64,000 nt of DNA from an uncultured Alphaproteobacteria bacterium. Lineage in GTDB: Bacteria; Pseudomonadota; Alphaproteobacteria; HIMB59; GCA-002718135. Made by a program: the position numbers and the translations under genes. The notes beneath the pieces are model-generated. The model saw only the letters and a list, made by a program, of their open reading frames with translations, ran no database searches and was not told the DNA's origin. Within the stretch, counting starts at the first letter, position 1; each line of letters starts with the position of its first letter. The DNA lies in the NCBI GenBank assembly GCA_902524385.1, contig CABZCZ010000007.1, positions 6,091 through 70,090 of the forward strand. Direction: 5' to 3'. This document shows positions 6,378 through 42,683 of this stretch, piece after piece.

Positions 6378-6403
6378 AAATAAATAATTTTTTTAGTAAT
6401 TTC

Positions 6404-16713: not shown

Positions 16714-16735
16714 AACTTTCCTAATACACTAAAAA

Positions 16736-26579: not shown

Positions 26580-27473
26580 TTACTTCATGCCTGTCAAAGT
26601 AATTCCTTCAATAAATCGTTTTTGCGCGATTATAAAAGCAACAATAAGAGGAACTGTTACTGTAACTATCGAAGCCATCATAGGACCAAATTCGTCACTA
26701 TCAATTCCACCTCTGAATTCTCTTATACCAAGTGGTGGAGTAAAGAGATCTCTATTTCCTGTTATTACCATACGAGGCCAGAAATAATCATTCCAGTGTG
26801 CAACAACTGAGAATATTGCAAAAGCAAGTAAAGCTGGTATTGCAGTTGGAAGCATTACTTTCCATACAATTGCGTACTCTCCCATGCCATCCATCCTGGC
26901 GGCATCAATTAATTCATCGGGCACAGTCATAAAAAATTGCCGCATTAAAAAAATTCCAAACACTGATATTGTCCAGGGGAGTATTAAGGCGGAATAGGTA
27001 TCAACTAGTCCTGCCTGGGCCAACATAACATATAATGGAAGCGCAATTCCGTGAACTGGTATCAGCAAGCAAAATAAAACCATCGAGAAAACAAATTCTC
27101 GCCCATAAAACCGCAACTTGGCGAGTGCATACGCGCACGGCAAGGCGACTAAAACCTGAATAATAAAGATTGATAAAGTAACTATAACACCATTCATTAA
27201 GTATCTAGGAATAGGAGCTTTTTCAAAAGCAAACCAATAGTTGTATTGATATGGCTTCATTGTACATGTCTCCTCTGAATAGCCAGTTTTAACACATACG
27301 GGAAACGTTTGAGTTTCTTGCGCACCAATAAGACCACCAGAAATTGATTGGATTTCTTGCTGAGATTTTAATGACATTGAAACCATCATATAAAAAGGGA
27401 GCATCACTACGATAGCACCAATAATTAAGATTGCATGCTTCCAACCTTCCCCAATATATTGTTTAGCTTCCAT
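26580..27473 (-). CDS. ABC transporter permease, carbohydrate/glycerol-3-phosphate (UgpE-like) type
   Basis: Has 6 TM segments and an EAA loop (DELIDAARMDGMGEYAIVWKVMLP). Confidence 0.8.
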   Translation of the reverse strand: MEAKQYIGEGWKHAILIIGAIVVMLPFYMMVSMSLKSQQEIQSISGGLIGAQETQTFPVCVKTGYSEETCTMKPYQYNYWFAFEKAPIPRYLMNGVIVTLSIFIIQVLVALPCAYALAKLRFYGREFVFSMVLFCLLIPVHGIALPLYVMLAQAGLVDTYSALILPWTISVFGIFLMRQFFMTVPDELIDAARMDGMGEYAIVWKVMLPTAIPALLAFAIFSVVAHWNDYFWPRMVITGNRDLFTPPLGIREFRGGIDSDEFGPMMASIVTVTVPLIVAFIIAQKRFIEGITLTGMK

Positions 27474-28429
27474 TAATAATGAACCCTTCTCTCAATGATA
27501 TATCTTTGGAAGAAAGTTAATATCAATATAAAACCAATGAAGACAACAGTGATAGCTGCACCGATACTGGTTAAATTTTGTTGAATAGCTTTTTCAAAAA
27601 TTGCATACATCATAACGTAGGTTGTTTTAGATGGACCACCTTTTGTGAGTATTTCAATTGTATCAAAAACTTGAAAGGTTCTAATAGTCGTTATGGTTAC
27701 GACAAATAAAGTTGTTGGACCAAGCATTGGCCATGTCACAAGTTTAAATTGTTCCCAGGTTGATTTAGCTCCATCCATTTCTGCAGCTTGATATAGTTCT
27801 CTCGGTATACCTGTTAATCCAGCTAAATATAAAACCATATTGAAACCAAAGGCTTGCCATATTCCAATAAAACACACAGTCCAAATAGCAGTATTTTTTT
27901 GTTTTAACCAATAAGGAAAGTCCATGTTATTTGCACACGCCACTGCATACCAACTTTGTTCTGAGTCTACCCACGGCAACCAATGAAAACCAAAAATAAA
28001 TTCTCTTGCGCCACCACAACCATTAGCTAAAAAACTATTTACTATTCCAAGAGTTGGGTGAAGAGTGAATTCCCAAGCAATAGCCATTGCAAGAAGCGTC
28101 GCCATAACTGGAAGAAAGAAAATAGTTTTATATATATCAGCGCCAAACCTTAGTGAATTTAAGAGCATAGCAGCGCATAATCCAAGTACAACAGAAATTG
28201 GAACGACAACAATAACATACGTCGCTGTGGCCCAAATCATTTTGACATATGTTTTGCGATTGAACATCTTGTCATAATTTTCTAGTCCAACCCACTCGAA
28301 TGTTTTGTTTCCTAAATTATAGTCAGTAAAAGAAATTCCTCCTGCAAGAAAAAGAGGAAAGATTAAAATAATTATCATCAGTATGATTGCTGGTGCAATA
28401 AACCACAGATGAGCCTTTGAATTATGCAT
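27473..28429 (-). CDS. ABC transporter permease (UgpA-like)
   Basis: Has the EAA loop ELYQAAEMDGAKSTWEQFKLVTWP. It is coupled to the neighbouring permease by a 1-nt overlap. Confidence 0.8.
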   Translation of the reverse strand: MHNSKAHLWFIAPAIILMIIILIFPLFLAGGISFTDYNLGNKTFEWVGLENYDKMFNRKTYVKMIWATATYVIVVVPISVVLGLCAAMLLNSLRFGADIYKTIFFLPVMATLLAMAIAWEFTLHPTLGIVNSFLANGCGGAREFIFGFHWLPWVDSEQSWYAVACANNMDFPYWLKQKNTAIWTVCFIGIWQAFGFNMVLYLAGLTGIPRELYQAAEMDGAKSTWEQFKLVTWPMLGPTTLFVVTITTIRTFQVFDTIEILTKGGPSKTTYVMMYAIFEKAIQQNLTSIGAAITVVFIGFILILTFFQRYIIERRVHY

Positions 28430-28444
28430 TAGTAAATGTTATCC

Positions 28445-29584
28445 TTATCCCATTGCATTATTAAACTGAACCCTCATCCCTGTTTGATTAAATAACAATG
28501 CTTTATTTGAATCTCTTTTGATATTTACACTTGAACCATTTATAATTTGATGTGTAAATTGAGGTAAGCCTCTTACAATTATTTTTTTTGAGTTGTCTTC
28601 TATATTTACATGAAAGTATATATCTGACCCCAAATTTTCTCTGTAAGCAACAGTGCCACTAAATGTATTTTCATTACTTTCATTAGTAATTTCTAAATGT
28701 TCTGGTCGAATTCCAATGTGTAAATCGGAATTAATTTCAGAACTTTTTCTTTTCAGGTTAACATTTAAAAAATTAACAATTCCACTAGAGTCCGAAGATC
28801 CATTAAAAATATTTATTTTAGGACTGCCAACAAATTGAGCAACACTTAATGATGAAGGATTATCATAAACTTCTTGAGGTGTATCCAGTTGTAATAAATT
28901 TCCATCAATCATTACCGCCATACGAGAAGACATTGTCAATGCTTCTGCTTGATCATGTGTTACATAAACAAATGTTGTTTTAAGTGAATTGTGAAGTTCT
29001 GATAATTCGGATCGCATATGCACTCTTAGAGCGGCATCTAAATTTGATAGTGGTTCATCCATTAAGAATGCAACAGGTTCTCTTACCATTGCGCGACCAA
29101 GAGCTACTCTTTGTCTTTGGCCTCCTGATAATTGTCCTGGTTTTCTATCCAGTAGTTCAGAAATCTGAAGTGTTTCAGATGTTTTATTAACTAAGTGATT
29201 GATAGATTCAGTTTTACTTTTTTTGTTTGGAGAAAAATTCCCTATTAAAGGAAGGCGTTCGAAAGCATTATAATCTCTCAGTCTTAGAGGTGTTTCTAAA
29301 TTTCTTCGTACCGTTAAATGTGGATATAAAGCGTATGATTGAAATACCATTGCAAGATCTCGCTCGCTGGCTCTAATTTTATTTACATTCTTATTATCAA
29401 TTAATACATCGCCTGAAGTTTGTTGTTCTAATCCTGCAATGATTCGGAGTAAGGTAGATTTACCACAACCAGATGGACCAACTAATGTTAAAAATTCTCC
29501 ATCTTGTATATCAACATTTAAATTGTTTAATACTTGCGTAGATCCAAATGACTTTGAAATATTTTTAAGTGATATTGTGCCCAC
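28445..29584 (-). CDS. ABC transporter ATP-binding protein (UgpC/MalK type)
   Basis: Has GPSGCGKST, LSGGQRQRVALGRA and FLMDEP, plus a C-terminal regulatory domain. The GTG start is preceded by AAGGGGGGAG. Confidence 0.85.
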   Translation of the reverse strand: MGTISLKNISKSFGSTQVLNNLNVDIQDGEFLTLVGPSGCGKSTLLRIIAGLEQQTSGDVLIDNKNVNKIRASERDLAMVFQSYALYPHLTVRRNLETPLRLRDYNAFERLPLIGNFSPNKKSKTESINHLVNKTSETLQISELLDRKPGQLSGGQRQRVALGRAMVREPVAFLMDEPLSNLDAALRVHMRSELSELHNSLKTTFVYVTHDQAEALTMSSRMAVMIDGNLLQLDTPQEVYDNPSSLSVAQFVGSPKINIFNGSSDSSGIVNFLNVNLKRKSSEINSDLHIGIRPEHLEITNESNENTFSGTVAYRENLGSDIYFHVNIEDNSKKIIVRGLPQFTHQIINGSSVNIKRDSNKALLFNQTGMRVQFNNAMG

Positions 29585-29762: not shown

Positions 29763-31004
29763 GTGTCAGATAATTTAGAAATTAACAAAAGAGAATATCC
29801 AAGCTCTTTCTCGAAAACTGCTATTGTTATATGCCTTGATGGCAGTCAAAAAGAGTATCTCGACGAAGCATCAAAATCAAATCTTACGCCAAATCTTGAT
29901 AAATTAATTGCAAGTGGTGAAAACCTACTAGTTCACAGCGCTATTCCAAGTTTTACAAATCCTAATAATATTTCCATTGTAACTGGGCAGCCAAGTTCTG
30001 TTCACGGTATATGCGGAAACTTTTTCTATACACCTGAGACTGGTGAAGAAGTAATGATGAATGACCCAAAATATATGCGAGCACCAACTATTTTTGAAAA
30101 ATTTTATAATTCCGGTTCTAAAATTGTTCTTGTTACTGCAAAAGACAAGTTGAGAAAACTTTTAGGAAACGGATTAAGTTTTGATGATGAGAGAGCTATT
30201 TGTTTTTCTGCTGAAAAATCTGATCAAGCAACAAAAGATCTCAATGGTATAGATAATGTAAACGATTGGTTGGGGATGCCAGTGCCAGAAGTATATTCTG
30301 AAGGACTTTCTGAATTTGTAATGGCTGCAGGTGTAAAGCTTCTTGAAGAGTTTAAACCAAATATCATGTATTTATCTACTACGGATTATATTCAACACAA
30401 ATATGCACCGGGAAATGAAACAGCAAATAAATTTTATGCAATGTTTGATAAATATATTGGTCTTTTAAACAGGGAGAATGTTTCTATAATCATCACAGCA
30501 GATCACGGTATGAAACCAAAATCAAAAGAAGATGGTTCACCTAACGCAATATTTTTACAAGATTATTTAGATAAAAAATTTGAACCAAACATGGCTAAAG
30601 TCATCCTACCAATTACAGATCCATATGTCGTTCATCATGGTTCACTTGGTTCTTTTGCAACAATTTATTTAGAAGACAAGAGCAAGGTAGATTCAGTTGT
30701 AAATGCTATTAAAGAAATAAAAGATATAGAAGTTGTTTTAACAAAAGATGAAGGATGCTCTACTTATAATTTACCTCCTGATAGAATGGGGGATATCATA
30801 TGTATGTCTTCAGAATTTATGACTATTGGTTCATCGGAAGATAAACACAATCTTTCTGGATTAAATGAACCTTTACGTTCTCATGGAGGACTCCATGAAA
30901 GAGAAGTGCCATTCATATCAAATTTAAAATTACAAAATTTAGATACTAGCAAACAATTATATAACTATGATGCATTTTACTATGCAATTAACGGAGCCTT
31001 ATGA
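29763..31004 (+). CDS. phnA: Phosphonoacetate hydrolase (alkaline phosphatase superfamily)
   Basis: Extended agreement with the remembered PhnA sequence: [69 protein letters not shown] and PLRSHGG. It has a GTG start in the track. Confidence 0.88.
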
Positions 31005-32443
31005 TGCACAAAAAAATGATTAATGAAGCAATGCGTATAGCTGGAGAAAAAGTTACTTCAGATAAAACAATAAATGTTGAGTACCCTTTTACAGGTGAAG
31101 TAATCGGAACGGTCCCAGCCGGTACCGCAGAGCATGCAAGAAAGGCTTTAGATATTGCTGCAAATTATCAGCCTAAACTTACAAGATATGAGAGACAAAA
31201 AATTCTTCAAACTGCTGCTGAAGTACTTGTTAAAAGAAAAGAAGAAATTTCTGATATTATTACTTTAGAGCTTGGTATCTCAAAACAAGATTCTTTATAC
31301 GAAGTAGGAAGAGCTTTCGATGTATTTTCATTAACGGCTCAACTTTGTATTCATGATGATGGTGAAATATTTTCTTGTGATTTAACTCCGCATGGAAAAG
31401 CGAGAAAAATATTTACCATAAGAGAGCCCTTAACTGCAATTTCAGCAATAACTCCATTTAATCATCCTTTGAATATGGTAGCGCATAAAATTGCACCTTC
31501 AATTGCAACAAATAATTGTACTGTATGTAAACAAACAGAATTAACACCTTTAACAGCAATGGTACTCGCTGATGTTTTATATGAAGCTGGCTTACCACCA
31601 GAAATGTTTTCAGTTGTAACTGGATGGCCTCAAGATATTGGATCTGAAATGATCAAGAATCCAAATATTGATCTAATTACTTTTACAGGCAGTGTAGGTG
31701 TAGGAAAATTAATTGCTGAACAAGCTGGATATAAAAGAACAGTTCTTGAGCTAGGCGGTAATGATCCTTTAATTGTTTTAAATGACTTAGATGGTGATGA
31801 TCTTAAAAAAGCTGTTGAGTTAGCTGTTACTGGAGCAACGAAAAACTCTGGTCAACGTTGTACAGCTGTTAAAAGAATACTGGTTCAAGAATCAATTGCA
31901 GATCAATTTGTTGAAATGGCTCTTGAGCGTGCTAAGAAAATTAAATTTGGTGATCCTATGAATATGGAAACAGACTTAGGTACTGTTGTTAATGCTCAAG
32001 CTGCAGAACTTTTTGATAAAAGAGTTTCTATGGCTGAAGAAGACGGTGCAAAAATTTTATATCATCCTGGAAGAAAGGGTGCTTTGTTACCTCCAATAGT
32101 TGTAGATAATGTTGACCCTAAAAGTGAATTAGTTTTAGAAGAAACATTTGGTCCAGTTATCCCAATCATTCGTGTGCCTAATGACGATGAAGCTGTAATG
32201 AAAATATCTAATTCAACTGCATTCGGATTATCATCTGGTGTATGTACAAATAACTTCATGCGAGCAAAAAAATATATTCAAGGTTTAAATGTTGGTACGG
32301 TAAATATTTGGGAGGTTCCAGGCTATAGAATTGAAATGTCTCCTTTTGGAGGAATTAAAGATTCAGGTCTTGGTTACAAAGAGGGTGTTATTGAAGCAAT
32401 GAAAAGTTTTACTAATGTAAAAACCTTTTCGCTACCTTGGTAA
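31001..32443 (+). CDS. phnY: Phosphonoacetaldehyde dehydrogenase (aldehyde dehydrogenase family)
   Basis: ALDH fold with LELGGNDP (Glu) and GQRCTAVKR (Cys). It has an ATGA overlap with phnA, and phnW is nearby. Confidence 0.8.
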
Positions 32444-32579: not shown

Positions 32580-33833
32580 ATGAAAAAATTAATTATAGGA
32601 TTGGCAGCCGTACTAGCCTTTGGTTTTTATGGTTCTGTTAATTCAGCTAAGTCTATTGAAATAGAAGTAGCTTATCCCTATTCAGGGTTATTCGATGTAA
32701 CGTTTCAAGCTATTATGCCGGAGTTTGAAAAAGCACATCCAGATATTCAAGTTAAATTTAGAGCAACTTATGAAAACTATGAAGATGCAACTGCAACAAT
32801 CTTTAGAGAGTCTACTTCAGGTAATTTACCAGATGTAACAATGCAAGGTCTTAACAGACAGGCACCTCTAGTTGACAAAGGTATTGCTAAGTCTTTAGAG
32901 CCATTTATTGCAAAAGAGGCAGCTTTTGAAAAAGATGGTTACCATTCTGCTATGTTAAGTCTTTCAACATTCGGTGGTGAAGTTTATGGATTACCATTTT
33001 CTGTATCAACGCCAGTTGGTTATTATAACATGGATTTATTAGCTGAAGCAGGTGTAGATAGTATTCCAACTAACTGGGACGAAGTTATTGCAGCATGTAA
33101 GAAATTGGAAGCAGCAGGTAAAGGAACTCTATACTTTGGTTGGAACATTACAGGTAACTGGTTCCACCAAGCATTAATGCACACTCAGAACGTTCCAATG
33201 GTTAAGGATGGAGCTGTAAATATGGGTGGTGATGCAGGACTTGCAACGTTAGAGCAAATGAAAGCAATCATGAGCGAATGTAATATGCCGAACTATTCAA
33301 TTGCTGATGGTCAAGCTGCGTTTAACGCAGGTACTCTTGGTATGCAGTTCTGGTCTACTTCTAGCTTGGGTTCAGTTAATGCTGCAAAGGCAGACTTTGT
33401 TTTAAAAACTGCACCATTCCCTGGAATGGCAGGAGTTAACAATGGAACACCAGCAAGATTACCAGCAGGTGGAAACGCTGCAATGTTAGTGTCTACATCT
33501 GATGATCCAGCAAGAGTTGATGCTGCATGGACTTTCTTAAAGTTCATTACATCAGGTATTGGTGCTGCATTAGTTGCTGAAACAACTGGATATGTTCCAC
33601 CGAACAAAGCAGCGAATGAATTATTAGGTGATTTCTATAGTAACAACCCTAATAAACTTACTGCAGTTGAACAACTTCCACTTCTTGCAGATTGGTTTGC
33701 ATATCCTGGAGAAAATGGATTAGCTATTACACAGGTAATCTATGATTATACAGAAGAAATTGCTACAGGCGATGCTGATGATATGGCAGATCTTCAAGAA
33801 GAAATGATGGAAGAAATAAACGATCTTATGTAA
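32580..33833 (+). CDS. ABC transporter substrate-binding protein, family 1 (UgpB-like); ligand unknown (phosphonate, glycerophosphodiester or G3P are candidates)
   Basis: It is 417 aa with a signal peptide and a strong SD (GGGAGG). It is noticeably more GC-rich than its surroundings. Confidence 0.8.
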   Translation: MKKLIIGLAAVLAFGFYGSVNSAKSIEIEVAYPYSGLFDVTFQAIMPEFEKAHPDIQVKFRATYENYEDATATIFRESTSGNLPDVTMQGLNRQAPLVDKGIAKSLEPFIAKEAAFEKDGYHSAMLSLSTFGGEVYGLPFSVSTPVGYYNMDLLAEAGVDSIPTNWDEVIAACKKLEAAGKGTLYFGWNITGNWFHQALMHTQNVPMVKDGAVNMGGDAGLATLEQMKAIMSECNMPNYSIADGQAAFNAGTLGMQFWSTSSLGSVNAAKADFVLKTAPFPGMAGVNNGTPARLPAGGNAAMLVSTSDDPARVDAAWTFLKFITSGIGAALVAETTGYVPPNKAANELLGDFYSNNPNKLTAVEQLPLLADWFAYPGENGLAITQVIYDYTEEIATGDADDMADLQEEMMEEINDLM

Positions 33834-33863: not shown

Positions 33864-33895
33864 ACAGCGGCTTTATAAAAGCCGCTGTTTTATTT
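33864..33895 (+). terminator. Rho-independent terminator after the SBP gene
   Basis: ACAGCGGCTTT-ata-AAAGCCGCTGT followed by TTTATTTT. Confidence 0.8.
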
Positions 33896-33920: not shown

Positions 33921-35000
33921 ATGCCTCTTACAACAACTACAATAGGTGCTTATCCAAAACCTAAACAAACACCGATACAAGATTGGTTTTTGGGGACAAA
34001 ATCAGAAGAAGAGAGAAAAGCTTCAAAAGGATTATTATCAAATTGGTCACCTGGGGCATATGAAAAAGCGTTAGAGTCTGCAGGTGCGGATGCTGAAAAA
34101 TTATTTTTATCAGCAATCAAAGAAGTTATAACTGATCAAGTAAATGCAGGTATTGATGTTCCAACTGATGGAGAAGTTAGACGTGAGAGTTATGTATTAT
34201 ATCAATGTCGATTTTTAAATGGAGTAAGTTTTAAAGAAGTTACACATAAGTCTGTAAGACAAGGTGCGTTCGAAGCTGATCTCCCAACTATTGTTGCACC
34301 AATTTCAAGTAAAGAAATACGCATACATTTAGACTGGAAGAGTGCACAACAATTTACAAAAAATCCAGTTAAAATTACCCTACCTGGACCAATGACAATT
34401 ACAGATTCAATTGCCAACAATTACTATGATGACATGAAAAAACTTGGTTTTGATTTAGCATTAGCACTTAATAAAGAAGTTAAAGCACTTGTAGATGCAG
34501 GTTGTCAGTATATTCAAATTGATGAACCAGTATTTGCTAGAAAGCCCGATGAAGCTCATTCTTACGGTATGGAAAATTTAGAAAGAATGATGCATGGTAT
34601 ACCTAAAGAAGTGCAACGCGTTTGCCATATTTGTTGTGGTTATCCTAACTCATTAGACTCAGAAGGTTATAAAAAGGCTGATCTAGATGCTTATGATAGA
34701 ATTGCATCACTTGTAGATGATTCAACTATTGATGAAGTATCTTTAGAAGATTCACATAGGCATAATGATTTAAATCTTTTAGAAAAATTTACTAAAACAA
34801 AAGTAATTTTTGGATTTATTGATATTGCAAAAAGTAGAATGGAGTCTGTTGAAGAAGTAAGAGTTCGTATCAAAGATTCACTTGAACATATTGATGAACA
34901 CCGTTTAATAGCTGCACCAGATTGTGGTTTAGGTTTCTTTACGCGAGAACAGGCAATTGAGAAAATGACAATTTTAACTAAAGCGGCAAAATCAATTTAA
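33921..35000 (+). CDS. Short cobalamin-independent methionine synthase (MetE C-terminal domain)-like Zn-dependent methyltransferase
   Basis: Has TTTIGAYPKP at the N-terminus and retains Zn-ligand-type motifs CHICCGYP (H-x-C) and APDCGLGF. It is 359 aa (single-domain). Confidence 0.7.
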   Translation: MPLTTTTIGAYPKPKQTPIQDWFLGTKSEEERKASKGLLSNWSPGAYEKALESAGADAEKLFLSAIKEVITDQVNAGIDVPTDGEVRRESYVLYQCRFLNGVSFKEVTHKSVRQGAFEADLPTIVAPISSKEIRIHLDWKSAQQFTKNPVKITLPGPMTITDSIANNYYDDMKKLGFDLALALNKEVKALVDAGCQYIQIDEPVFARKPDEAHSYGMENLERMMHGIPKEVQRVCHICCGYPNSLDSEGYKKADLDAYDRIASLVDDSTIDEVSLEDSHRHNDLNLLEKFTKTKVIFGFIDIAKSRMESVEEVRVRIKDSLEHIDEHRLIAAPDCGLGFFTREQAIEKMTILTKAAKSI

Positions 35001-35004
35001 GGTA

Positions 35005-36117
35005 ATGTGGAATTATTTTAACCCTGTTGAAATTATCTTTGGAGAAAATAGATTTAAAGAAGTACATGATGCTGTTAAAAATAAGAATTACATCATAATC
35101 ACGCATCCAGAAGAAATTTTTAAAAAATACAGTGATGAATTAAAATCTTCATCAAATCCACCACTATCCATTATGACGGATGTTCAGCCTAATCCAGATT
35201 ATAAGGATATTTTAGAGCTACAAAAAAAATTTTCATCAATCAATGAATCGGTAGATTATATTTTAGCTATAGGTGGTGGCTCTGTTACAGACACAGCTAA
35301 AGCAATTGCTGCATTTAAAGATAAACAAGAATATCTAACAGATTTCGTTCGCAATAAGAAAAGTCCTAGAGTTGAAAATCCAATCAAGATTATTGCAATA
35401 CCTACAACTTCAGGAACATCAAGTGAACTTACGTGTTGGGCCACAATTTGGGATAAAGAAAAAAATAATAAATTATCTTTGGCTCATAAATCTCTTTATG
35501 CAGAAAAAACAATTATCGATCCATCTATTATGGTTGATAAGCCTTTAGGCTTGACTATTTCAACTGGTTTAGATGCTCTCTCCCATTCAATGGAAAGTAT
35601 TTGGAATATTAATGCGAACCCAATTTCTGCTTCTCATGCAATACAAGCATCAAAATTAGTACTAGAAAATTTACCACTTCTCGCTAAAGATTTAAAAAAC
35701 GTTGAATTACGCTCAAACATTGCATTGGCGTGTGTTCATGCTGGCTTAGCGTTTTCCAATACGAAAACTGCTATTGCGCACAATCTATCATACCCTGTGA
35801 CACTCAATTACGGTATTCAGCATGGTATTGCTTGTTCATTTACTTTACCCATGATTACTAAAAGTATGGTTGGAATTGATAGTGTAGCAGAAGAAAGACT
35901 AAAGTTAATTTTTAATGATAATCTAGAGAATGCCGCAAATTATCTGAGTGAATTTATGCGTTCTTTAGAGGTTCCTCTTAACCTAAATGAAATAAAAGTT
36001 CCTGTTCAAGAGTGGAATAATATAGTAGATGGTGCGTTTTTAGGGGAACGAGGTAAAAACTTTATTGGCAATAAAGAAGCCTTCATCTCTTCTGCTAAAT
36101 CAATGGGACTTTATTAG
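35005..36117 (+). CDS. Group III iron-containing alcohol dehydrogenase; candidate 2-hydroxyethylphosphonate/phosphonoacetaldehyde oxidoreductase
   Basis: Has NPVEIIFG, GGGSVTDTAK and a His cluster (LDALSHSMES...AHNLSYP). It starts 4 nt after the MetE-like gene. The substrate assignment is inference from context. Confidence 0.75.
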   Translation: MWNYFNPVEIIFGENRFKEVHDAVKNKNYIIITHPEEIFKKYSDELKSSSNPPLSIMTDVQPNPDYKDILELQKKFSSINESVDYILAIGGGSVTDTAKAIAAFKDKQEYLTDFVRNKKSPRVENPIKIIAIPTTSGTSSELTCWATIWDKEKNNKLSLAHKSLYAEKTIIDPSIMVDKPLGLTISTGLDALSHSMESIWNINANPISASHAIQASKLVLENLPLLAKDLKNVELRSNIALACVHAGLAFSNTKTAIAHNLSYPVTLNYGIQHGIACSFTLPMITKSMVGIDSVAEERLKLIFNDNLENAANYLSEFMRSLEVPLNLNEIKVPVQEWNNIVDGAFLGERGKNFIGNKEAFISSAKSMGLY

Positions 36118-36119
36118 TA

Positions 36120-37226
36120 ATGAAAAAAAATTTCAGGTTTTATGATAACAGACAAAAATATTTATTATTTGTCACAACAACAAATGAAAAAAATCAAATT
36201 GCTGATGCGATACGTCCTCACGTAAATAAAATTAAACCTCAAAAACCCGGTTTAAAAATATTTGATGCTGGTATGGGTGATGGTTCCTTACTTATGAATG
36301 TGATGCGTCAGTGCCACGAAGCTAGGCCTAATGTACCTCTATTAGTTTGTACAAAAGAAATAAGTATTGAAGATGTAAGATTAGGTTTAGAAAAATTACC
36401 CGATAGGTTTGTTGAACATAAGAATACTGTTTTTGTTATTTCAAATCTACACTACGCTGAAGCCGCAAACCTAAAATCAAAAAATGAAGTTAAACAGAAA
36501 AAAATTAATTGGAATATTATTAAATTAAAAGGTGACACTTCTCTTGAATTTGCTCAACAATTAAGAAAACAAAATGAATTTTTAGAAAAAAAATGGAATA
36601 TAGAAATTAACAAAAAGTCAGGTAACCATACTTATAAAGAGCCTTCAGTCATGGTTATCTACCGCGAGGATCAAGAATTTAATGTTAATGAATTAATACC
36701 TACCAAAAAAAAATCAGATAATAAATTTGATCTCATCATAGCTTCACAGCCTTATCGGTCAAGAATTTCAGCAGAAAAAAAATCAAAATACGTCATCGAA
36801 CCAATGATAAAAGCGTTAAAACCAAAAGGTAAATTATTAACTATTCATGCTTCAGGAAAAGATCCTGCTAATGAAATAATTTGTAAAATTTGGCCAAAAG
36901 AGATCCCCTTTCCTTCTCTTGGAAATAGTATCATTTCTTATCTTAAGAAAAATTTAGATAAAGATTTATTAAGCAGTTTATCTTTTGGAGAAAAAAGAAT
37001 TATTAAATGTAAACTGAGAGCTCTACCAACAGAAATCACTGGAGGTATAGCGACATCATTAGTTTTTTCTGCTTGGAATGCCTCCATATATGTCAATCAA
37101 ATGGATGATGATAAAGTAATGAAGGTAGAAAAAACAAAAAATTACGAAAAAGTAGTTCAAAAAATTGTTGCTAAAAATAAAGGTCTTTATTTTAACAATG
37201 AAATATTTGTAATCGAAAAAAAATAA
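36120..37226 (+). CDS. Uncharacterised protein with a Rossmann SAM-methyltransferase-like motif I
   Basis: Has LKIFDAGMGDGSLL (a D/E-x-G-x-G-x-G-like motif). No family was recognised. It starts 2 nt after the ADH gene. Confidence 0.4.
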   Translation: MKKNFRFYDNRQKYLLFVTTTNEKNQIADAIRPHVNKIKPQKPGLKIFDAGMGDGSLLMNVMRQCHEARPNVPLLVCTKEISIEDVRLGLEKLPDRFVEHKNTVFVISNLHYAEAANLKSKNEVKQKKINWNIIKLKGDTSLEFAQQLRKQNEFLEKKWNIEINKKSGNHTYKEPSVMVIYREDQEFNVNELIPTKKKSDNKFDLIIASQPYRSRISAEKKSKYVIEPMIKALKPKGKLLTIHASGKDPANEIICKIWPKEIPFPSLGNSIISYLKKNLDKDLLSSLSFGEKRIIKCKLRALPTEITGGIATSLVFSAWNASIYVNQMDDDKVMKVEKTKNYEKVVQKIVAKNKGLYFNNEIFVIEKK

Positions 37227-37229
37227 TTA

Positions 37230-38018
37230 TTATTTAAACCAATTAACTTCTGTTTTTAAAAAATCCTCGGTATGAATAATTAAGGCGTCAGATCGAATTA
37301 TTGCAACATTATAATTTGTATCTGTATTTGCTGTCCCTAAACGATATTCATTTGAAAAGTTAGGTATCAGAGGAGACCAAGTACTTCTTGGGGAGGAAAA
37401 AGTAATACCACAATAAGAACCAGAACTTGTAATGTGCTGATGACCAAAAAAAATATGTTTTATTATCTTATTATTTTTAGTTAAAATTTGTTGAAACTCT
37501 TTTTTTTGTTGTAATCCTATTCCATCACTTTCCTCTTTTACTAATGCTAGTGGATTATGATGCATAAAGATGTACGTATCCGTATTAGTCTTACTTAAAA
37601 TATTATTTAACCATTCTTGCCTCTCTTCACAGTAATGTCCTTGGTGAGTGTTAATCAGATTAGTATCTATAAAAATTAAACGTTTATTATCTATATCCTT
37701 AAAGTATTGAATAAATCCATTTGAATCGGTTTCAATATTAGGAAAGTTTATTTTAAACTCATCTCTGTTATCATGATTACCTATAATTAATTGAGGATTT
37801 AAATTCTTTGGCAGATCTGCTTCATCAATTATTTTTATAAATAACTGATAAGAATCTTTATCACCTAAGTCTGTAATATCACCAGTGATAGCAAATAAAT
37901 CCGCATCACCATGATTATTTTTTATATGACTTAATGCTTTTTTAAATTTACTGACAGGATCTATGCCATGAATCTTATCTATATAAATATGGGGGTCTGA
38001 AAGGTGAATAATTTTCAT
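37230..38018 (-). CDS. Calcineurin-like metallophosphoesterase (class III PDE, CpdA/GpdQ-like diesterase)
   Basis: Motif series: SDPH, GDITD, GNHDN, MHH, GHQH. Confidence 0.8.
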   Translation of the reverse strand: MKIIHLSDPHIYIDKIHGIDPVSKFKKALSHIKNNHGDADLFAITGDITDLGDKDSYQLFIKIIDEADLPKNLNPQLIIGNHDNRDEFKINFPNIETDSNGFIQYFKDIDNKRLIFIDTNLINTHQGHYCEERQEWLNNILSKTNTDTYIFMHHNPLALVKEESDGIGLQQKKEFQQILTKNNKIIKHIFFGHQHITSSGSYCGITFSSPRSTWSPLIPNFSNEYRLGTANTDTNYNVAIIRSDALIIHTEDFLKTEVNWFK

Positions 38019-38038: not shown

Positions 38039-38671
38039 TTAGATCACAGTTTTAAAATAAATATATTTATTAAATTCCTCTTTTAAGTCGATGCTAACTC
38101 TTGCATGTACCTTACCTTGTTTTCCTTGAAACGATTGTTTTTCTGTAACTGGAAACACCCCTTCATGCCAAATGTTTGGATGAATATACAAACCTTTTGA
38201 TCCATCACAATAAAATGCTTTAAAATGTTCTGGTTCAATGTCGTCTGTCGGTAAGGCTAAAGGACAAATAAATGGTTTATTTTCTTCAGGAAAGAAAAGC
38301 TGACCTCCATCAGGATGATAATTTGCATGCCATAGAAATATTTTTGTTGGATCTGAATATTTATCTTTTTGTAATTCTTGATCAGGATTATTGGCATAAC
38401 CCAGTATATATTTTCCATCTACTTCATAATCACTTTTATGTTGGACAGCATTATTTTGTCCATAAAGCACGTCACCTTGCCACCAGGTATCAAAAGAACC
38501 TTCGGTAGTTCCACCTTCATTTCCTGTTCCCTCTTCTATGTCGCGCCATCCTTGTTTTGGCCAAGTAACAATTTCAATATCACTATTTTCAAAACTATCG
38601 ATTAAATACCCATATCCTTTAAGATTTTCATTTGTTGCTTTAACTAAAGGTATTTCAATTTTTATTGTCAT
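38039..38671 (-). CDS. Ureidoglycolate lyase (AllA, PF04115)-like cupin with an insertion
   Basis: Blocks align by eye to E. coli AllA: KGYGYLID (AYGDVIE), YHPDGGQLFFP (RHPLGTQAFIP) and AFYCDGSKGLYIHPNIWHEG (AFITNGEQGVNYHRNVWHH). Confidence 0.55.
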   Translation of the reverse strand: MTIKIEIPLVKATNENLKGYGYLIDSFENSDIEIVTWPKQGWRDIEEGTGNEGGTTEGSFDTWWQGDVLYGQNNAVQHKSDYEVDGKYILGYANNPDQELQKDKYSDPTKIFLWHANYHPDGGQLFFPEENKPFICPLALPTDDIEPEHFKAFYCDGSKGLYIHPNIWHEGVFPVTEKQSFQGKQGKVHARVSIDLKEEFNKYIYFKTVI

Positions 38672-38678
38672 TATTTTG

Positions 38679-39776
38679 TTAGTTTAATGTTAATCCTAAT
38701 TCAGTAACGACTTCTTTTACAGCTTTTATTGTGTCCATCATGTCTTGTTCATCTAAATTACCAATACACCCAATTCTAAAAGTTTCTGCCACTGTTAGTT
38801 TTCCTGGATAAATTAAAAAATCTTTTTCACTAAGAGCATTATAAAATTTCTCAAAGTTAAATTTAGGATCATTAGGTTGTTTAAACGTAATAATAATTGG
38901 TGCTTGCAAATTATCAGGAAGTAGTTGCTCAAATCCCAACTCTTTCATTCCATTACAAATAATTTCACAATTTTTTTTATATCTTTTGCCTCGTCCCTCT
39001 ACACCGCCTTGTTCTTTATGTTCCTCAATCGCTTGATTGAATGCAGCCAATACATGTGTTGGAGGTGTAAATCGCCATTGTTTATTTTTTTCCATTGCTT
39101 GCCATTGATCATATAAGTCTAGACTTAGTGAGTGACTATTGCCTTTTGCATTTTGAATAACTTCATTTTTAACAAGAATGAAACCAACACCTGGCACACC
39201 TTCTAAGCATTTGTTTGATGAAGCGGCTACAGCATCAAAAGTAATTGTTTTAGAACTTAAGGGTAATGCACCAAAGGCACTCATTGCATCGATGAATAAC
39301 GATAAGTTTTTCATTTCAACTAATTTTGCAATCTCTTCAATAGGATTTAAAATACCCGATGTTGTTTCACAATACACAGCAAAGACGTGTGTTAAGTTGT
39401 TTCTATCAATTAACTCTTCAATTTTATTGATGTCATGTACTTCATGTTCAGCAACTTCATATTCAATAAAATCTCTCCCTAAATAAGTGCACATTTTTTT
39501 CATTCTTTGCCCGTAAGCACCATTGATCAGAATCAGAATTTTAGAATCTTTTTGAGTAAGAGAGCTCACCATCGACTCTACAGCAAAAGTTCCACTTCCC
39601 TGCATTGGAACACATTGATATTTATCTTCACCGTCTATTAATTTAACAAGGGAATCTCTAATTGATGCATTGAGATCAATAAATTTTGTATCCCTTGAAC
39701 CCCAATCATGAAGCATAGCCTCTTTTGTTGACATCGATGTCGTGAGAGGACCAGGGGTTAATAATTTTTTATCCAT
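38679..39776 (-). CDS. phnW: 2-aminoethylphosphonate--pyruvate transaminase
   Basis: Class V aminotransferase with LLTPGPLTTS at the N-terminus and 365 aa. It is in the same cluster as phnA and phnY. Confidence 0.8.
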   Translation of the reverse strand: MDKKLLTPGPLTTSMSTKEAMLHDWGSRDTKFIDLNASIRDSLVKLIDGEDKYQCVPMQGSGTFAVESMVSSLTQKDSKILILINGAYGQRMKKMCTYLGRDFIEYEVAEHEVHDINKIEELIDRNNLTHVFAVYCETTSGILNPIEEIAKLVEMKNLSLFIDAMSAFGALPLSSKTITFDAVAASSNKCLEGVPGVGFILVKNEVIQNAKGNSHSLSLDLYDQWQAMEKNKQWRFTPPTHVLAAFNQAIEEHKEQGGVEGRGKRYKKNCEIICNGMKELGFEQLLPDNLQAPIIITFKQPNDPKFNFEKFYNALSEKDFLIYPGKLTVAETFRIGCIGNLDEQDMMDTIKAVKEVVTELGLTLN

Positions 39777-39864: not shown

Positions 39865-40434
39865 ATGAGAATGGAAGAAAATATCGTAGATTATCTCTTA
39901 GATCTTTTGAAAACAAAAGGTGCTGATATTCAATATGGTAATGAGGATGTGACTCAGCTTGAGCACGCACTCCAATGTGCCGAACTTGCTGAAAAACATA
40001 AATTACCAGGACCAACAATTGCTGCAGCATTATTACACGATGTTGGCCACCTTATCTATGAGGACGGCGATCCCATTCATGAAGGGAAAGATGGTCATCA
40101 TGAAAACTTAGGTGCTGATTTTTTAAAAAAATATTTTGGTGAAGATGTTATTTTACCAATTAGAGCACATGTTGATTCAAAAAGATATTTATCAAGTGTT
40201 GAAGAAGGTTATTATGATAGTCTATCAGAAGCATCGAAACTTTCGTTAAAAGTTCAAGGTGGTCCTTTCACAAAAGAAGAAGCAGATGCGTTTATAAGCA
40301 AACCTTTTATGGATGAGGCAGTTGAGCTTAGAAGATTTGATGATTTAGCAAAAATTCTAGATAAAAAAACTCCCGATGTTGAACATTTTCGTCCCTATTT
40401 AGAAGAAGCAAGACAGTCTTTTTTAGCTAAATAA
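39865..40434 (+). CDS. phnZ: HD-domain di-iron oxygenase of the PhnZ/TmpB family (TIGR03276-like)
   Basis: QLEHALQCA, AALLHDVGH, HHEN, AHVDSKRYL, LSEASKLSLKVQGGPF and RRFDDLAK match the remembered PhnZ blocks. It is divergent from phnW. Confidence 0.7.
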   Translation: MRMEENIVDYLLDLLKTKGADIQYGNEDVTQLEHALQCAELAEKHKLPGPTIAAALLHDVGHLIYEDGDPIHEGKDGHHENLGADFLKKYFGEDVILPIRAHVDSKRYLSSVEEGYYDSLSEASKLSLKVQGGPFTKEEADAFISKPFMDEAVELRRFDDLAKILDKKTPDVEHFRPYLEEARQSFLAK

Positions 40435-40440: not shown

Positions 40441-40965
40441 ATGCAATTTAGCAATTATGATTTTATTGACTCTAAGTCATTTGCAGGCAAAATTATATTA
40501 ACTTCTTTTCCAGGTCTTAATTCTAATGGTTTATTTGAAGAAACAATTTTAGCAAACGAATTAGAAATATTTAAAAATAACAATTGTAGTTCTATTACTT
40601 CTTTTGTTGAAGATAGCGAATTTGAAAAATTGTGTGATAAAACTTTGTTTGTCAAAAATATTTATGAACATAAATTACATTGGTACCATTTACCCATTTA
40701 TGACATGGGAGCACCAGATAAAGATTTTAAATATAAATGGGAAACAACAAAAGTTTTATTAAAGAACGAATTGATAGATGGTAAAAATATAGTTTTACAT
40801 TGCCGTGGAGGAAAAGGAAGAGCTGGCACCATAGCTGCTATTTTACTTGTTGAATTTAATTATCAAAAACAAGAAGCTATCGATCTAGTGCGATCAAGAA
40901 GAAAAGGGGCTATTGAATCTAAAATCCAGGAAGATTTTATTTTTTCTTATCGAGCAGTTGATTAA
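40441..40965 (+). CDS. Cys-based (CX5R) dual-specificity/PTP-like phosphatase, cytoplasmic
   Basis: Has the P-loop HCRGGKGRAGT and an upstream DMGAPD general-acid loop. There is no signal peptide. Confidence 0.7.
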   Translation: MQFSNYDFIDSKSFAGKIILTSFPGLNSNGLFEETILANELEIFKNNNCSSITSFVEDSEFEKLCDKTLFVKNIYEHKLHWYHLPIYDMGAPDKDFKYKWETTKVLLKNELIDGKNIVLHCRGGKGRAGTIAAILLVEFNYQKQEAIDLVRSRRKGAIESKIQEDFIFSYRAVD

Positions 40966-42014
40966 AAAGAGACCGTTAAATTAAAAATATTTTCTAGAAT
41001 AAATAAAACAATTAAAGAAATTAATGCTGCAATTATAGGTAGTGTCATCCAACCCAAAGAAATTCTTCCCGCAATTGACCATTGAACCTCTTTGCCTCCT
41101 TTTAAAAGACCAATTCCAATTACGCCGCCAACAACAGCTTGGGAACTTGATACTGGAACCAAAGGTATAGAGGGAAGATTTATAGATTGTAAAAAAGCAC
41201 TTATGCCCTGGGATGCAAATAAAAATAAAACAATAGAATGCGATATAACAACAATAAATGCTGCCACAGGCGTCATTTTTAAAAGATCATTACCAACGGT
41301 AAACATAACTCTTTTCGAGTAAGTAAAAACACCAACGGCTATTGCTAAACCACCCAGCAGAAATAATTGTTCTTTTGAAGAAAAGACAAGTAAATTTCCA
41401 ATAGAAACATCAGTAAATGGCGATATAGGTACGAAGACCCCCATTACATTGGCAATATTGTTTGCACCTAAACTATAAGCACCAAAAGCACCCGCTAAAA
41501 GTAAAGCTGTTCTTGTGTAAGCATCAAGTCTGAGAATATGTAACTTTCTATTAAGTATAACTCTTTTTGTAAAAGTAAATAAACCCATTGCAATAACCCC
41601 TGCAATGATAGGACAGAGTATCCATGTTCCTAAAATAGTAATTAAAACTTGAAGATTAGTTGAAGATCCCGTGTATAAATTCCAACCAACAATTGCTCCA
41701 ACAATCGCTTGCGTTGTTGAAACAGGCAAGCCAACTTTGGTCATTAAATAAACAGATATTCCCGCAGCGACACATGCTGCAAAAGCACCAGGTAATGCAT
41801 TAATAGCACCTAACTTACCTAAAGTTTCTGTTGTACCTGCTCCGCTAATAATTGCACCCAGAATAACAAAGACACTACAAATTATTGCTGCAGTTGTGAA
41901 ACCAACCATTCGCGTCCCAACAGCAGTCCCAAAAACATTTGCTGCATCATTGGCACCAAGTGACCAACCTAAAAAAAGACCACCAAATAAAAAAATTAGA
42001 ATTGTAATTTCCAT
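40962..42014 (-). CDS. pit: Inorganic phosphate transporter, PiT family
   Basis: Has two GANDAANVFGT/GANNIANVMG repeats and LPVSTTQAIVG/VPVSSSQAVVG. Confidence 0.88.
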   Translation of the reverse strand: MEITILIFLFGGLFLGWSLGANDAANVFGTAVGTRMVGFTTAAIICSVFVILGAIISGAGTTETLGKLGAINALPGAFAACVAAGISVYLMTKVGLPVSTTQAIVGAIVGWNLYTGSSTNLQVLITILGTWILCPIIAGVIAMGLFTFTKRVILNRKLHILRLDAYTRTALLLAGAFGAYSLGANNIANVMGVFVPISPFTDVSIGNLLVFSSKEQLFLLGGLAIAVGVFTYSKRVMFTVGNDLLKMTPVAAFIVVISHSIVLFLFASQGISAFLQSINLPSIPLVPVSSSQAVVGGVIGIGLLKGGKEVQWSIAGRISLGWMTLPIIAALISLIVLFILENIFNLTVSF

Positions 42015-42020
42015 TGAAAA

Positions 42021-42683
42021 TTAAACGGAACGTTTAATAGCGTAAATTTGAACCTCGTCAGCTATGTCTTCTGCTTGATCACAAATACGATCAATCTTCT
42101 CTACAAAATATCGAAGATGCATTTTTTGATCTAGAGGTAATTCAGAGTCAAAAATTCTTCTTGCAAGAGAACTAAATTTTATATCAGATTCTTTTTCATA
42201 AAATGTAACTTTATGTGCATTATCTCTAACAGATTTAATATCTCTAAAAAATGATCTTACGGTTAAACATAATGATTCAACACAATTTACAACAGTCTCT
42301 GTTAACTCAATTAAATCTTGGTGAAACTCTTTTGGAAAATTAGGTTTTTGAATAGAGAAGTGATAACAATTCCCTTGGTACATTCCAATTAATTCGTCGA
42401 TGTGTTCTAAAAGTCTTAAAACGTCACTTCTTGCATCTGGGATTAGTGTTTCTTCATAAAGAGTATGCTCAACATCTTTCGTAATCTTGTCTGCCTTACT
42501 TTCCATTTCTTTTACTTTTTCAACCATTTCCTCAAATTTACCGTTGGCGGAATGATTTAGATAAGTTGGAACTATCGATTTAAATACCAAACCAACTTCA
42601 GAGACAATATCAACAAATTCATCAATTTCTCTTTCAAGTTTCTTGGTATCACCAAATAAAGATGCACTTTTTAGTCCAAACAT
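42021..42683 (-). CDS. DUF47/TIGR00153 PhoU-like phosphate-transport regulator partner of PiT
   Basis: It is a 220-aa helical protein immediately upstream of pit, the usual pairing. Confidence 0.75.
   Translation of the reverse strand: MFGLKSASLFGDTKKLEREIDEFVDIVSEVGLVFKSIVPTYLNHSANGKFEEMVEKVKEMESKADKITKDVEHTLYEETLIPDARSDVLRLLEHIDELIGMYQGNCYHFSIQKPNFPKEFHQDLIELTETVVNCVESLCLTVRSFFRDIKSVRDNAHKVTFYEKESDIKFSSLARRIFDSELPLDQKMHLRYFVEKIDRICDQAEDIADEVQIYAIKRSV

Follow-up and report, generated by a model that had tools for sequence, protein, structure and literature searches.

The window analyzed here, a 64,000-nucleotide stretch of a contig from an uncultured alphaproteobacterium, carries three adjacent plus-strand genes, ORF1 (33921-35000), ORF2 (35005-36117), and ORF3 (36120-37226), within a cluster of phosphonate utilization genes, and comparison with related loci suggests that phosphorus scavenging and methyl metabolism are linked in a way not yet described. 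ORF1 is a predicted single-barrel ("core") MetE-like zinc homocysteine S-methyltransferase related to MesD, ORF2 is a group III iron-type alcohol dehydrogenase (Fe-ADH) predicted to be a PhpC-type 2-hydroxyethylphosphonate (HEP) dehydrogenase, and ORF3 belongs to an unannotated family with the fold of class I S-adenosylmethionine (SAM)-dependent methyltransferases. New here are the importer-coupled variant of core methionine synthase represented by ORF1 and the unstudied, methyl-cycle-associated methyltransferase-fold family represented by ORF3. Our preferred reading is a composite model in which the three genes belong to three modules with methyl-transfer coupling, and we assign it a probability of roughly 0.45. 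The host is a SAR11-related alphaproteobacterium (window G+C content of about 30%) whose nearest relatives are marine single-cell genomes labelled "uncultured Alphaproteobacteria," with Pelagibacteraceae more distant, and the trio lies within a phosphate starvation island.

The three genes are separable modules rather than one unit. Two related loci (L005 and L016) carry phnA-phnY-ADH-ORF3 without ORF1 and its importer, two others (L017 and L019) carry phnA-phnY-ORF3 with neither ORF1 nor the ADH, a further two (L110 and L121) have ORF1 and the ADH without ORF3, and in L001 a BHMT-like gene replaces ORF1. The initial annotation of this stretch had instead proposed one dedicated branch, in which the MetE-like and Rossmann proteins would strip or relocate the methyl groups of N- or O-methylated phosphonates, such as N-methyl- or trimethyl-2-aminoethylphosphonate (AEP), for processing by PhnW, PhnY, and PhnA. 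Such a branch is favored by the co-transcribed appearance of the genes (spacers of 4 nt and 2 nt), by their arrangement inside the phnA/phnY/phnW cluster, which is kept in about 20 related single-cell genomes, by the placement of ORF3 in the window clade, always between phnY (or the ADH) and the phosphodiesterase gene even where ORF1 and ORF2 are missing, and by the presence of a PhnZ/TmpB-like oxygenase gene nearby. However, the three genes have been lost and gained independently, ORF3 homologues outside the clade lack adjoining phosphonate genes, and ORF1 orthologues are found with HEP-type clusters without phnW (L089, L096, L100, and L108) and not with aminophosphonate clusters. In addition, only a quaternary amine can donate a methyl group to a thiolate, which would leave two further demethylations unexplained. 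A single dedicated branch thus seems improbable.

ORF1 (359 aa) consists of one Meth_synt_2 barrel, with PF01717 (121 bits) as its only Pfam family, and carries the motifs CHICCGYP at residue 235 and APDCGLGF at residue 332. It is not a canonical two-barrel MetE (about 750 aa, with Meth_synt_1), TIGR01371 scoring 92 bits versus 930 and matching over model positions 456 to 750 only, and the NCBIfam methionine synthase models are all far below threshold (196 versus 406 and 194 versus 392 bits). Across 22 sequences, the zinc ligands (His and Cys in H[MI]CCGYP, Glu in S[IL]ED, and Cys in PDCG) are invariant, as are the homocysteine-binding DGE and DEP motifs, whose Glu and Asp hold the amino group. 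Judged by these conserved ligands, ORF1 is very probably a homocysteine S-methyltransferase, which would bind homocysteine as MetE and MesD do and methylate it to methionine. NF006589, which we took to be the MesD-type NCBIfam model and used as a proxy for comparison with ACIAD3523, gave 194 bits for ORF1 (cut-off, 392). MesD proteins have been delimited by a score of at least 390 bits to ACIAD3523 (Price et al., PMC7857596), and by this proxy ORF1 falls short of such similarity. The nearest solved structure, 3RPD, is MesD itself (Price et al. 2021, PMC7857596), an enzyme that acts as a true methionine synthase but depends on the partner protein MesX. In common with MesD, ORF1 has a single Meth_synt_2 barrel without a folate domain, the zinc ligands, the homocysteine-binding Glu and Asp, and, in an alignment read with the residue roles given in PMC7857596, the MesD-specific insertion and Tyr of 3RPD, and both are found in aerobic Proteobacteria. 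In contrast to MesD, ORF1 scores only 154 bits to 3RPD, and it is an ABC importer, not an oxygen-dependent protein, that is conserved as its partner. ORF1 belongs to none of the four described core methionine synthase families and represents a distinct orthologous group. Right after the catalytic residues, this group has invariant cationic residues (DGEVRRE, DEPVFARKP, and EDAHRHND, compared with DGEQTRQ, DEPAFNVF, and ECHNSHV in MesD), which would suit an anionic donor.

The comparative evidence tying ORF1 to phosphonates is stronger than that available to the initial annotation. Orthologues of ORF1 with 55 to 72% identity occur in many Alpha- and Gammaproteobacteria, and we read 27 orthologue loci, from genomes with G+C contents of 31 to 70%. 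The same Ugp-like ABC importer is almost always encoded with them, in several gene orders. Beside the orthologues in L089, L091, L093, and L094 (G+C content, 46 to 70%), the solute-binding protein (SBP) is 62 to 65% identical and the ATPase 52 to 58% identical to those of the window. Thirteen metagenome loci offer at least 2.3 kb of upstream flank, and in 11 of them ORF1 is preceded by the SBP gene, directly in nine and with a Metallophos gene between the two in L101 and L104. The same-strand cluster consists of the importer and ORF1 only in L093, L094, L095, L098, L099, and L109, with an ORF3 homologue added at the head in L095, such that ORF1 is the sole non-transport enzyme of the importer operon in five of these loci and, the ORF3 homologue aside, in the sixth. 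Within the window clade, the importer, the SBP, and ORF1 have been acquired and lost as a set.

Phosphorus-related genes recur around these orthologues. An Fe-type HEP dehydrogenase gene accompanies ORF1 in the window clade, in L110 to L112, L114, and L121, and probably in L164 (a fragment), and L087 has an Fe-type dehydrogenase of 46% identity beside a PhnD-like SBP. A Zn-type HEP dehydrogenase gene (TIGR03366, 295 bits) lies directly upstream of ORF1 in L089 and is also present in L093, L100, and L108, in the last of which it adjoins phnA. Either or both of phnY and phnA are near the orthologue in L096, L108, L112, and L121. Genes for SpdA/CpdA-like metallophosphoesterases are found near it in L091, L101, L104, L110, and L125, in or next to the importer-ORF1 operon in L091, L101, L104, and L125, and phosphate transporters are encoded nearby in L094 (PHO4/PhoU) and L093 (an Na/Pi cotransporter). 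Most of the orthologue clusters are without phnW. The earlier proposal that the MetE-like protein is tied to phosphonate use and homocysteine methylation thus gains from the co-occurrence of importer, HEP dehydrogenase, and phnA/phnY, all of it genomic context, and its extension to N-methyl-AEP is weakened by the HEP-type character of clusters that lack phnW.

Since ORF1 is inherited with one importer and is often the only enzyme of that importer's operon, it most likely acts on the imported compound, and as its homocysteine site is retained, the methyl group should come from the imported compound or from the first product made of it. Going by this pattern of inheritance, there is nearly an even chance that the donor is an imported phosphorus compound, that is, an organophosph(on)ate or the first product of its breakdown. 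The phosphorus context, the distantly UgpB-like SBP, and the pairing with HEP-specific dehydrogenases suggest a methyl-capped HEP-type phosphonate or phosphate ester, which would also be the simplest donor by gene content. In this reaction the zinc-bound homocysteine thiolate would attack the methyl carbon, and demethylation would unmask the phosphonate for the dehydrogenase and PhnY/PhnA while yielding methionine. A mechanistic precedent for taking a methyl group off a phosphate ester oxygen is the N-terminal domain of Ada, in which a zinc-bound thiolate demethylates methyl phosphotriesters. Ada differs in being a stoichiometric DNA repair protein of unrelated fold with no sequence relationship to ORF1, and the analogy is purely mechanistic. 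The logic is also that of BHMT, Bmt, and MmuM (PF02574), in which a small methylated nutrient gives up its methyl group directly to zinc-activated homocysteine, but these enzymes are of another fold family and the donor for ORF1 is probably anionic or phosphorus containing rather than a carboxylate betaine. A PF02574 gene sits beside ORF3 in L001, in the place of ORF1, and looks like a non-orthologous replacement. Taken one at a time, a methyl phosph(on)ate ester or ether is a tentative choice of donor, a donor unrelated to the importer and a donor of some other kind are each a little less likely than that, and the alternative of an onium head group, carried on a glycerophospho(no)diester, is the most doubtful of the four.

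Two described systems and one transporter family were considered and set aside. The proteins of the cobalamin-dependent betaine/methionine system MtgBCD are unrelated (PMC12478193), and SAR11 methylarsenic demethylation offers no candidate genes overlapping this cluster (PMC6426599). The SBP is of the SBP_bac_1/8 type and hence is not the AEP-binding protein AepX, since AepX, PhnS, and AepS belong to pfam13343 (PMC8316502). As a separate observation, a more distant ORF1-like subgroup, 52 to 59% identical to the search query P0360 (an ORF1 orthologue), occurs in mixed contexts, and in about 7 of its 56 loci a different ABC importer adjoins (L118, L127, L133, L148, L149, L171, and L174). That importer has a binding protein of SBP_bac_8/SBP_bac_6 type, and the AEP-binding AepX and PhnS are members of this Pfam family. 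In L091, the ORF1 orthologue lies between genes for a BCCT (betaine/choline-type) transporter and a fused URO-D and B12-binding corrinoid methyltransferase (14976-16925 and 6067-7680), with a methylenetetrahydrofolate reductase (MTHFR) gene nearby, and the locus is an island of methyl group metabolism.

Alternatively, the genes may share a location without sharing a function, ORF1 being a cobalamin- and folate-independent methionine synthase and ORF3 a methionine/SAM housekeeping gene, both caught in a variable island that collects phosphorus-scavenging genes; in that case ORF3 could be the methyl-supplying partner of ORF1, as MesX is for MesD. The closest characterized relative of ORF1, MesD, is after all a true methionine synthase in need of a partner (PMC7857596), and any methionine synthase would be useful in SAR11, which lacks MetE and MetH (PMC12366255). 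In SAR11-type genomes, ORF3 moves as an apparently single-copy gene among a metY operon, a stand-alone position beside a formate-tetrahydrofolate (THF) ligase gene, and the phosphonate island, and some ORF1 orthologues (such as those in L084 and L105) have neither importer nor phosphorus context. Chance, however, does not explain why two unrelated HEP dehydrogenase folds are each found beside ORF1 orthologues. The importer-ORF1 pairing is kept across Alpha- and Gammaproteobacteria from 31% to 70% G+C in several gene orders, and phosphate-related neighbors recur. Furthermore, the scan of 30 window genes between 20.5 and 42.7 kb turned up no MesX (DUF1852, PF08908) homologue, and the annotated neighborhoods of the ORF1 orthologues show none either. 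We regard co-location without shared function as unlikely, although less so than the single dedicated branch.

ORF2 carries GGGSVTDTAK at residue 90 and has the Fe-ADH fold (PF00465, 123 bits, with C-terminal PF25137, 115 bits). Its best NCBIfam family by far is TIGR03405, the phosphonate-associated Fe-ADHs, at 360.9 bits, a lead of about 200 bits over the next family (158 bits). An ADH of this type directly follows phnA-phnY in L001, L005, and L016, and in the window ORF2 lies in a degradative cluster with phnY and phnA upstream and with the pepM signature absent. PhpC-type enzymes oxidize HEP to phosphonoacetaldehyde, a proposed catabolic entry to PhnX or to PhnY/PhnA, and PhpC is HEP specific and releases phosphate when coupled with PhnX (Piazza et al. 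2026, Protein Sci, PMC13576164). The unrelated zinc-class HEP dehydrogenase PbfG is likewise highly specific, phpC and pbfG genes cluster with phnX or phnY-phnA, and HEP oxidation by a PhpC-type enzyme has been demonstrated only for the protein of Paraburkholderia fungorum (PMC13576164). By its family match, ORF2 is very probably an HEP dehydrogenase as well, and it would convert HEP to phosphonoacetaldehyde, which PhnY would oxidize to phosphonoacetate and PhnA would cleave to acetate and phosphate. The suggestion in the initial annotation that the ADH feeds HEP into PhnY/PhnA is therefore upheld by TIGR03405, and the route is already published for the enzyme class and not new (PMC13576164), ORF2 contributing only a marine, phnW-containing example. 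It shares with the PhpC systems the Fe-ADH fold, TIGR03405 as best model, and the position after phnA-phnY in relatives, and with both the PhpC and the PbfG systems the predicted reaction, but it differs from PhpC systems in scoring below the TIGR03405 cut-off (361 versus 424 bits), in sharing its cluster with phnW, which the published survey found seldom with phpC, and in having both MetE-like and methyltransferase-like neighbors, which that report does not mention (PMC13576164). A choline-to-betaine role for the ADH, the aldehyde dehydrogenase, and ORF1 was rejected because PhnY and PhnA pass their equivalog cut-offs and because PhpC and PbfG are highly HEP specific, though choline was not among the substrates tested (PMC13576164).

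ORF3 (368 aa, with IFDAGMGDGSLL at residue 47) has no Pfam match above threshold, no NCBIfam match, and no PDB sequence match at E values up to 1, and its relatives are called "hypothetical protein" in every source. The family is large, with 5,120 hits when sequences are clustered at 90% identity and only representatives are counted, and 769 at 50% identity; the exact ORF3 sequence of the window has no record in the contig collection. An AlphaFold2 model built on 22 sequences (mean per-residue confidence, or pLDDT, of 90) has histamine N-methyltransferase as its best Foldseek match (E = 4.5e-11, template modeling score of 0.46 to 0.62, and 11 to 13% identity). Foldseek returned 211 matches at E values of 0.001 or below, and among the matches listed (50), all are methyltransferases. 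Motif I (DAGMGDG), the acidic E80 after strand 2, N109, and SQP[YFW] after strand 4 are conserved, and polar residues outside the SAM site (R11, E23, W159, D184, and Y324) are invariant across 27 to 93% identity. In the model the Rossmann-like seven-strand arrangement is present, which places ORF3 in a class I SAM-methyltransferase-fold family. With histamine N-methyltransferase and other small-molecule class I methyltransferases it shares the fold, motif I, the acidic ribose-binding residue, and the strand order, but its identity to histamine N-methyltransferase is low, there is no family-level sequence match, and it has about 100 extra residues, so that at the sequence level ORF3 does not belong to that family. 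On the strength of the model, we lean slightly toward ORF3 being a catalytic SAM methyltransferase. Its identification as the marine methanethiol S-methyltransferase MddH was unsupported, as the MddH paper makes no mention of SAR11 and no sequence comparison stands behind the idea.

Genomic context places ORF3 in methionine/SAM-cycle biology, and it is not phosphonate specific. We collected 80 genome loci with ORF3 homologues, of which 43 are SAR11-type and come from 43 different single-cell or metagenome-assembled genomes; no second copy was found in these 43 genomes, and ORF3 thus appears to be single-copy in the SAR11-type genomes sampled. A neighbor-joining tree of ORF3 separates clades by context. 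In the first SAR11-type context, comprising the window clade, L018, L001, and L019, ORF3 lies in the phosphonate island. The second, seen in most Pelagibacteraceae (L082 7840-11110 and about 15 other loci), is a row of metY, an alpha/beta-hydrolase gene (271 aa), and the ORF3 homologue as last gene. The third is stand-alone, beside formate-THF ligase and glutathione genes in the L031 subgroup and beside unrelated genes in L036 and L037. A further 38 loci carry distant homologues (40 to 47% identity) and belong to Steroidobacteraceae, Tardiphaga, Bradyrhizobium, Hyphomicrobiales, SAR86, and Rhodothermales; their neighbors were counted within 5 kb by profile searches over all open reading frames (ORFs). 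At least one methyl-cycle gene is present in 28 of the 38: a divergent MTHFR-like gene lies directly downstream in 15 loci, a MetE-like gene is found in 12, and bona fide MetK and AhcY genes occur in 10 and 7, respectively. A PfkB nucleoside-kinase-like gene is nearby in 6 loci. Phosphonate genes were near the homologue in none of these 38 loci and in none of the 24 SAR11-type loci outside the phosphonate island clade, which runs counter to the initial proposal that the Rossmann protein acts on phosphonates: homologues of ORF3 normally lie away from phosphonate genes and are accompanied by methionine/SAM-cycle genes instead. In the cultured Tardiphaga robiniae, a Liv-type importer, a MetE-like gene of the PRK06520 type, a 306-aa gene, the ORF3 homologue, MetK, and AhcY stand in a row. 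Moreover, ORF3 homologues accompany three families of homocysteine methyltransferases, the ORF1 type, the PRK06520/MetE2 type, and PF02574 (in L001). Besides the window, the association with the ORF1 type has an independent instance in two gammaproteobacterial contigs, L095 and L097, where the ORF3 homologue heads an importer-SBP-ORF1 operon.

Several details of these loci merit record. The Pelagibacteraceae row, in which metY encodes O-acetylhomoserine sulfhydrylase, adjoins genes for homoserine dehydrogenase and aspartate-semialdehyde dehydrogenase, and a SAM riboswitch upstream of it was detected neither at gathering score, in a scan that covered the window and four loci, nor in a sensitive scan of L082 7650-7900. 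The MTHFR-like protein encoded downstream of ORF3 homologues (about 310 aa; at most 45 bits to MetF models with a cut-off of 294) is found at L047 11094-12056, L069 9147-10073, L076 11144-11998, and 12 further loci, and in L076 the MetE-like gene, the ORF3 homologue, and the MTHFR-like gene form a three-gene row. In Steroidobacteraceae-type metagenome-assembled genomes (L045, L049, L053, L054, L060 to L062, and L064), the ORF3 homologue occurs with genes for a TonB receptor, a VOC/glyoxalase protein, an intradiol (catechol-type) dioxygenase, a CoA-transferase, two MetE-like proteins, and an IclR regulator, a cluster whose function may be to demethylate methoxylated aromatics in a homocysteine-dependent way.

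Operons that hold the steps from homocysteine to methionine, from methionine to SAM, and from S-adenosylhomocysteine (SAH) to homocysteine lack only the SAM-consuming step, and a methyltransferase-fold protein such as ORF3 fits that slot. In the composite model, ORF3 would transfer the methyl group from SAM to an acceptor, such that methionine made by the demethylase returns to homocysteine. By our own rough estimate, a cell needs about 10 times more phosphorus than methionine. If phosphorus were freed by homocysteine-dependent demethylation, methionine would then have to cycle back and a methyl outlet would be needed, which is an argument and not a result. That ORF3 serves as this outlet is a possibility that we hold only tentatively. 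Close relatives of the window lineage are without MetE and MetH. SAH/SAM as a catalytic methyl carrier from 5-methyl-THF was rejected, by our own reasoning, on thermodynamic grounds. A more ambitious proposal, that ORF1 is a fifth, importer-coupled core methionine synthase family using imported methylated organophosph(on)ate and that the ORF3 family is the missing methyltransferase step of a homocysteine/methionine/SAM shuttle, is doubtful as a combined claim. In a still bolder variant, core homocysteine methyltransferases would receive their methyl groups from ORF3, in a partnership like that of MesD with MesX.

ORF3 might also be no enzyme but a SAM/SAH sensor that regulates methionine-cycle genes or enzymes, with a logic like that of SahR or MetW. 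SahR combines an ArsR-type helix-turn-helix DNA-binding domain with a methyltransferase-like SAH sensor. ORF3 resembles SahR and MetW in its methyltransferase fold and in being encoded with ahcY, metK, metF-like, and homocysteine methyltransferase genes, and the neighbor set of its homologues (MetK, AhcY, MTHFR-like, MetE-like, BHMT-like, and adenosine-kinase-like genes) presumably matches the described SahR regulon. Long-form homologues (P0123, P0145, and P0156; L047, L052, and L095) have about 100 extra N-terminal residues, comprising a four-helix domain (pLDDT of about 83) and a disordered linker, and often head SAM-cycle or importer operons (L047 and L095), and P0156 has a degenerate glycine-rich motif. 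We take the N-terminal domain to read like an XRE-type helix-turn-helix, an unverified DNA-binding label, as the domain has no credible Pfam match even at E values up to 10 and only two chance-level matches at E values of about 0.2. Unlike SahR, the ORF3 family has no detectable ArsR-type helix-turn-helix, and the likeness comes from the literature rather than from a sequence comparison. Neither the window protein, which starts directly at the methyltransferase-fold core, nor any SAR11-type member has the extra domain, and invariance of polar residues away from the SAM site is what a substrate pocket typically shows. We regard a purely sensory role for ORF3 as unlikely, although it is a serious rival.

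A number of observations weigh against the composite model, which nonetheless remains our preferred reading. ORF3 is absent from the otherwise window-like L110 and L121, and most SAR11-type genomes have ORF3 far from ORF1-type genes, so the coupling of the two may not exist. A SAM-dependent enzyme cannot be a net supplier of methionine's methyl groups, and the outlet assigned to ORF3 is a matter of logic only; moreover, the long forms with a helical N-terminal domain and the degenerate SAM motif of P0156 fit a sensor or regulator at least equally well. As for ORF1, the orthologues in the Magnetovibrio-type loci (L084 to L086, L106, and L107), which lie beside a succinate-semialdehyde dehydrogenase gene, and in L105 have neither importer nor phosphonate genes, and in L087 a tripartite ATP-independent periplasmic transporter stands in place of the importer. 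The SBP is only distantly UgpB-like, its closest structures being UgpB proteins that bind glycerol-3-phosphate or glycerophosphocholine (50 to 70 bits). To our knowledge there is no evidence that HEP methyl esters or ethers are abundant natural compounds. Finally, the 360.9 bits of ORF2 lie below the TIGR03405 equivalog cut-off of 423.7.

The layout of the window bears out what the initial annotation had described around the trio: three co-directional, tightly packed genes between phnA-phnY-SBP and a phosphodiesterase-cupin-phnW group, with all quoted motifs located in the genes named, a single-domain MetE-like ORF1, an Fe-ADH ORF2, an ORF3 without family match, and a terminator after the SBP gene. 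The ORF1/ORF2 and ORF2/ORF3 spacers are those given above, and the convergent minus-strand gene at 37230-38018 lies 3 nt past ORF3. From 26.5 to 42.7 kb, the gene order is the importer genes on the minus strand, phnA, phnY, and the SBP gene on the plus strand, the hairpin, ORF1-ORF2-ORF3, the convergent metallophosphoesterase-cupin-phnW operon, and genes for a PhnZ-like HD oxygenase, a dual-specificity phosphatase, PHO4, and PhoU_div. The membrane and ATPase genes of the importer (26580-29584, minus strand) are divergent from phnA and comprise two BPD_transp_1-type permease genes (26580-27473 and 27473-28429), identified only via orthologues so called, and a gene for a UgpC/MalK-type ATPase with a TOBE domain (28445-29584; Pfam ABC_tran and TOBE_2; NCBIfam UgpC, 388 bits). 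The plus-strand genes are phnA, for phosphonoacetate hydrolase (29763-31004; TIGR02335, 466 bits, above the cut-off of 408), phnY, for phosphonoacetaldehyde dehydrogenase (31001-32443; TIGR03250, 798 bits, above the cut-off of 636), and the gene for the periplasmic SBP, the conserved upstream neighbor of ORF1 (32580-33833; SBP_bac_1/8 by Pfam, distantly UgpB-like). In the gap between the SBP gene and ORF1, an intrinsic terminator-like hairpin on the plus strand (33864-33888) has an 11-bp stem with 6 G-C pairs followed by a T-run, with the tail TTTATTTT, and is the richest in G-C pairs of four terminator-like sites between 29.4 and 40.1 kb; as a consensus match only, it suggests that the trio can be transcribed independently.

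Downstream of the trio, on the minus strand, lie genes for a calcineurin-like, SpdA/CpdA-like metallophosphoesterase (37230-38018; PF00149; NF050112, 176 bits, cut-off 400), a candidate phosphodiester or phosphonate-monoester hydrolase, for a 210-aa cupin (38039-38671; a weak Ureidogly_lyase match of 40 bits, with NCBIfam ureidoglycolate lyase models at 33 bits or below versus cut-offs of 160 to 315), and for the AEP:pyruvate transaminase PhnW (38679-39776; NF010006, 513 bits, above the cut-off of 296). The identities given earlier to phnA, phnY, and phnW thus hold, all three enzymes of the hydrolytic AEP/phosphonoacetate pathway scoring above their equivalog cut-offs. Wherever a related locus is long enough to contain both, the cupin gene is found paired with phnW, and its product could be an undescribed accessory of AEP catabolism. 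Divergent from phnW is the gene for the PhnZ/TmpB-like HD-domain phosphonate oxygenase (39865-40434, plus strand; TIGR03276, 201 bits, cut-off 215); a PhnY*/TmpA-type 2-oxoglutarate dioxygenase partner was not seen among its neighbors, and a gene of this type also follows phnW in L110 and L114. The dual-specificity phosphatase, PHO4, and PhoU_div genes occupy 40441-42683. Further along, a GT4 glycosyltransferase gene (43042-44049, minus strand) overlaps a metallophosphoesterase gene (44039-44851, minus strand), which together we take to be a PlcP/Agt pair of the kind described in SAR11 for phospholipid-to-glycolipid renovation. Because of this pair together with PHO4, PhoU_div, and the dual-specificity phosphatase, we consider 26 to 45 kb a phosphate starvation island. 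A 165-aa bacterial SET-domain protein is encoded at 44938-45435 (plus strand; PF00856, 81 bits). Consistent with the initial statement that there is no phosphoenolpyruvate (PEP) mutase, its signature EDKx5NS was absent from all window ORFs of at least 60 aa, a weak test, and a scan of 40 window ORFs from 15.6 to 49 kb found no PEP mutase. No Rfam family reached its gathering score in the window; in the Pelagibacteraceae genome of L082, an IMES-2 RNA motif (2112-2251, minus strand; 140 bits) adjoins an integrase gene.

In sum, SAR11-type bacteria dominate the surface ocean, where phosphate is scarce, and are unable to reduce sulfate. If ORF1 acts as proposed with its organophosphorus importer, phosphorus scavenging would be tied to methionine supply in a single reaction, and a new kind of methyl donor would be added to the short list available to methionine synthases. 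If the shuttle proposed for ORF3 is real, it could explain how homocysteine-dependent demethylation, for example by BHMT, operates in SAR11-type cells that lack MetE and MetH. The ORF3 family is large, is unnamed in the databases searched, and is found in SAM-cycle operons of soil and marine Proteobacteria, and knowledge of its reaction would fill a gap in methyl metabolism.

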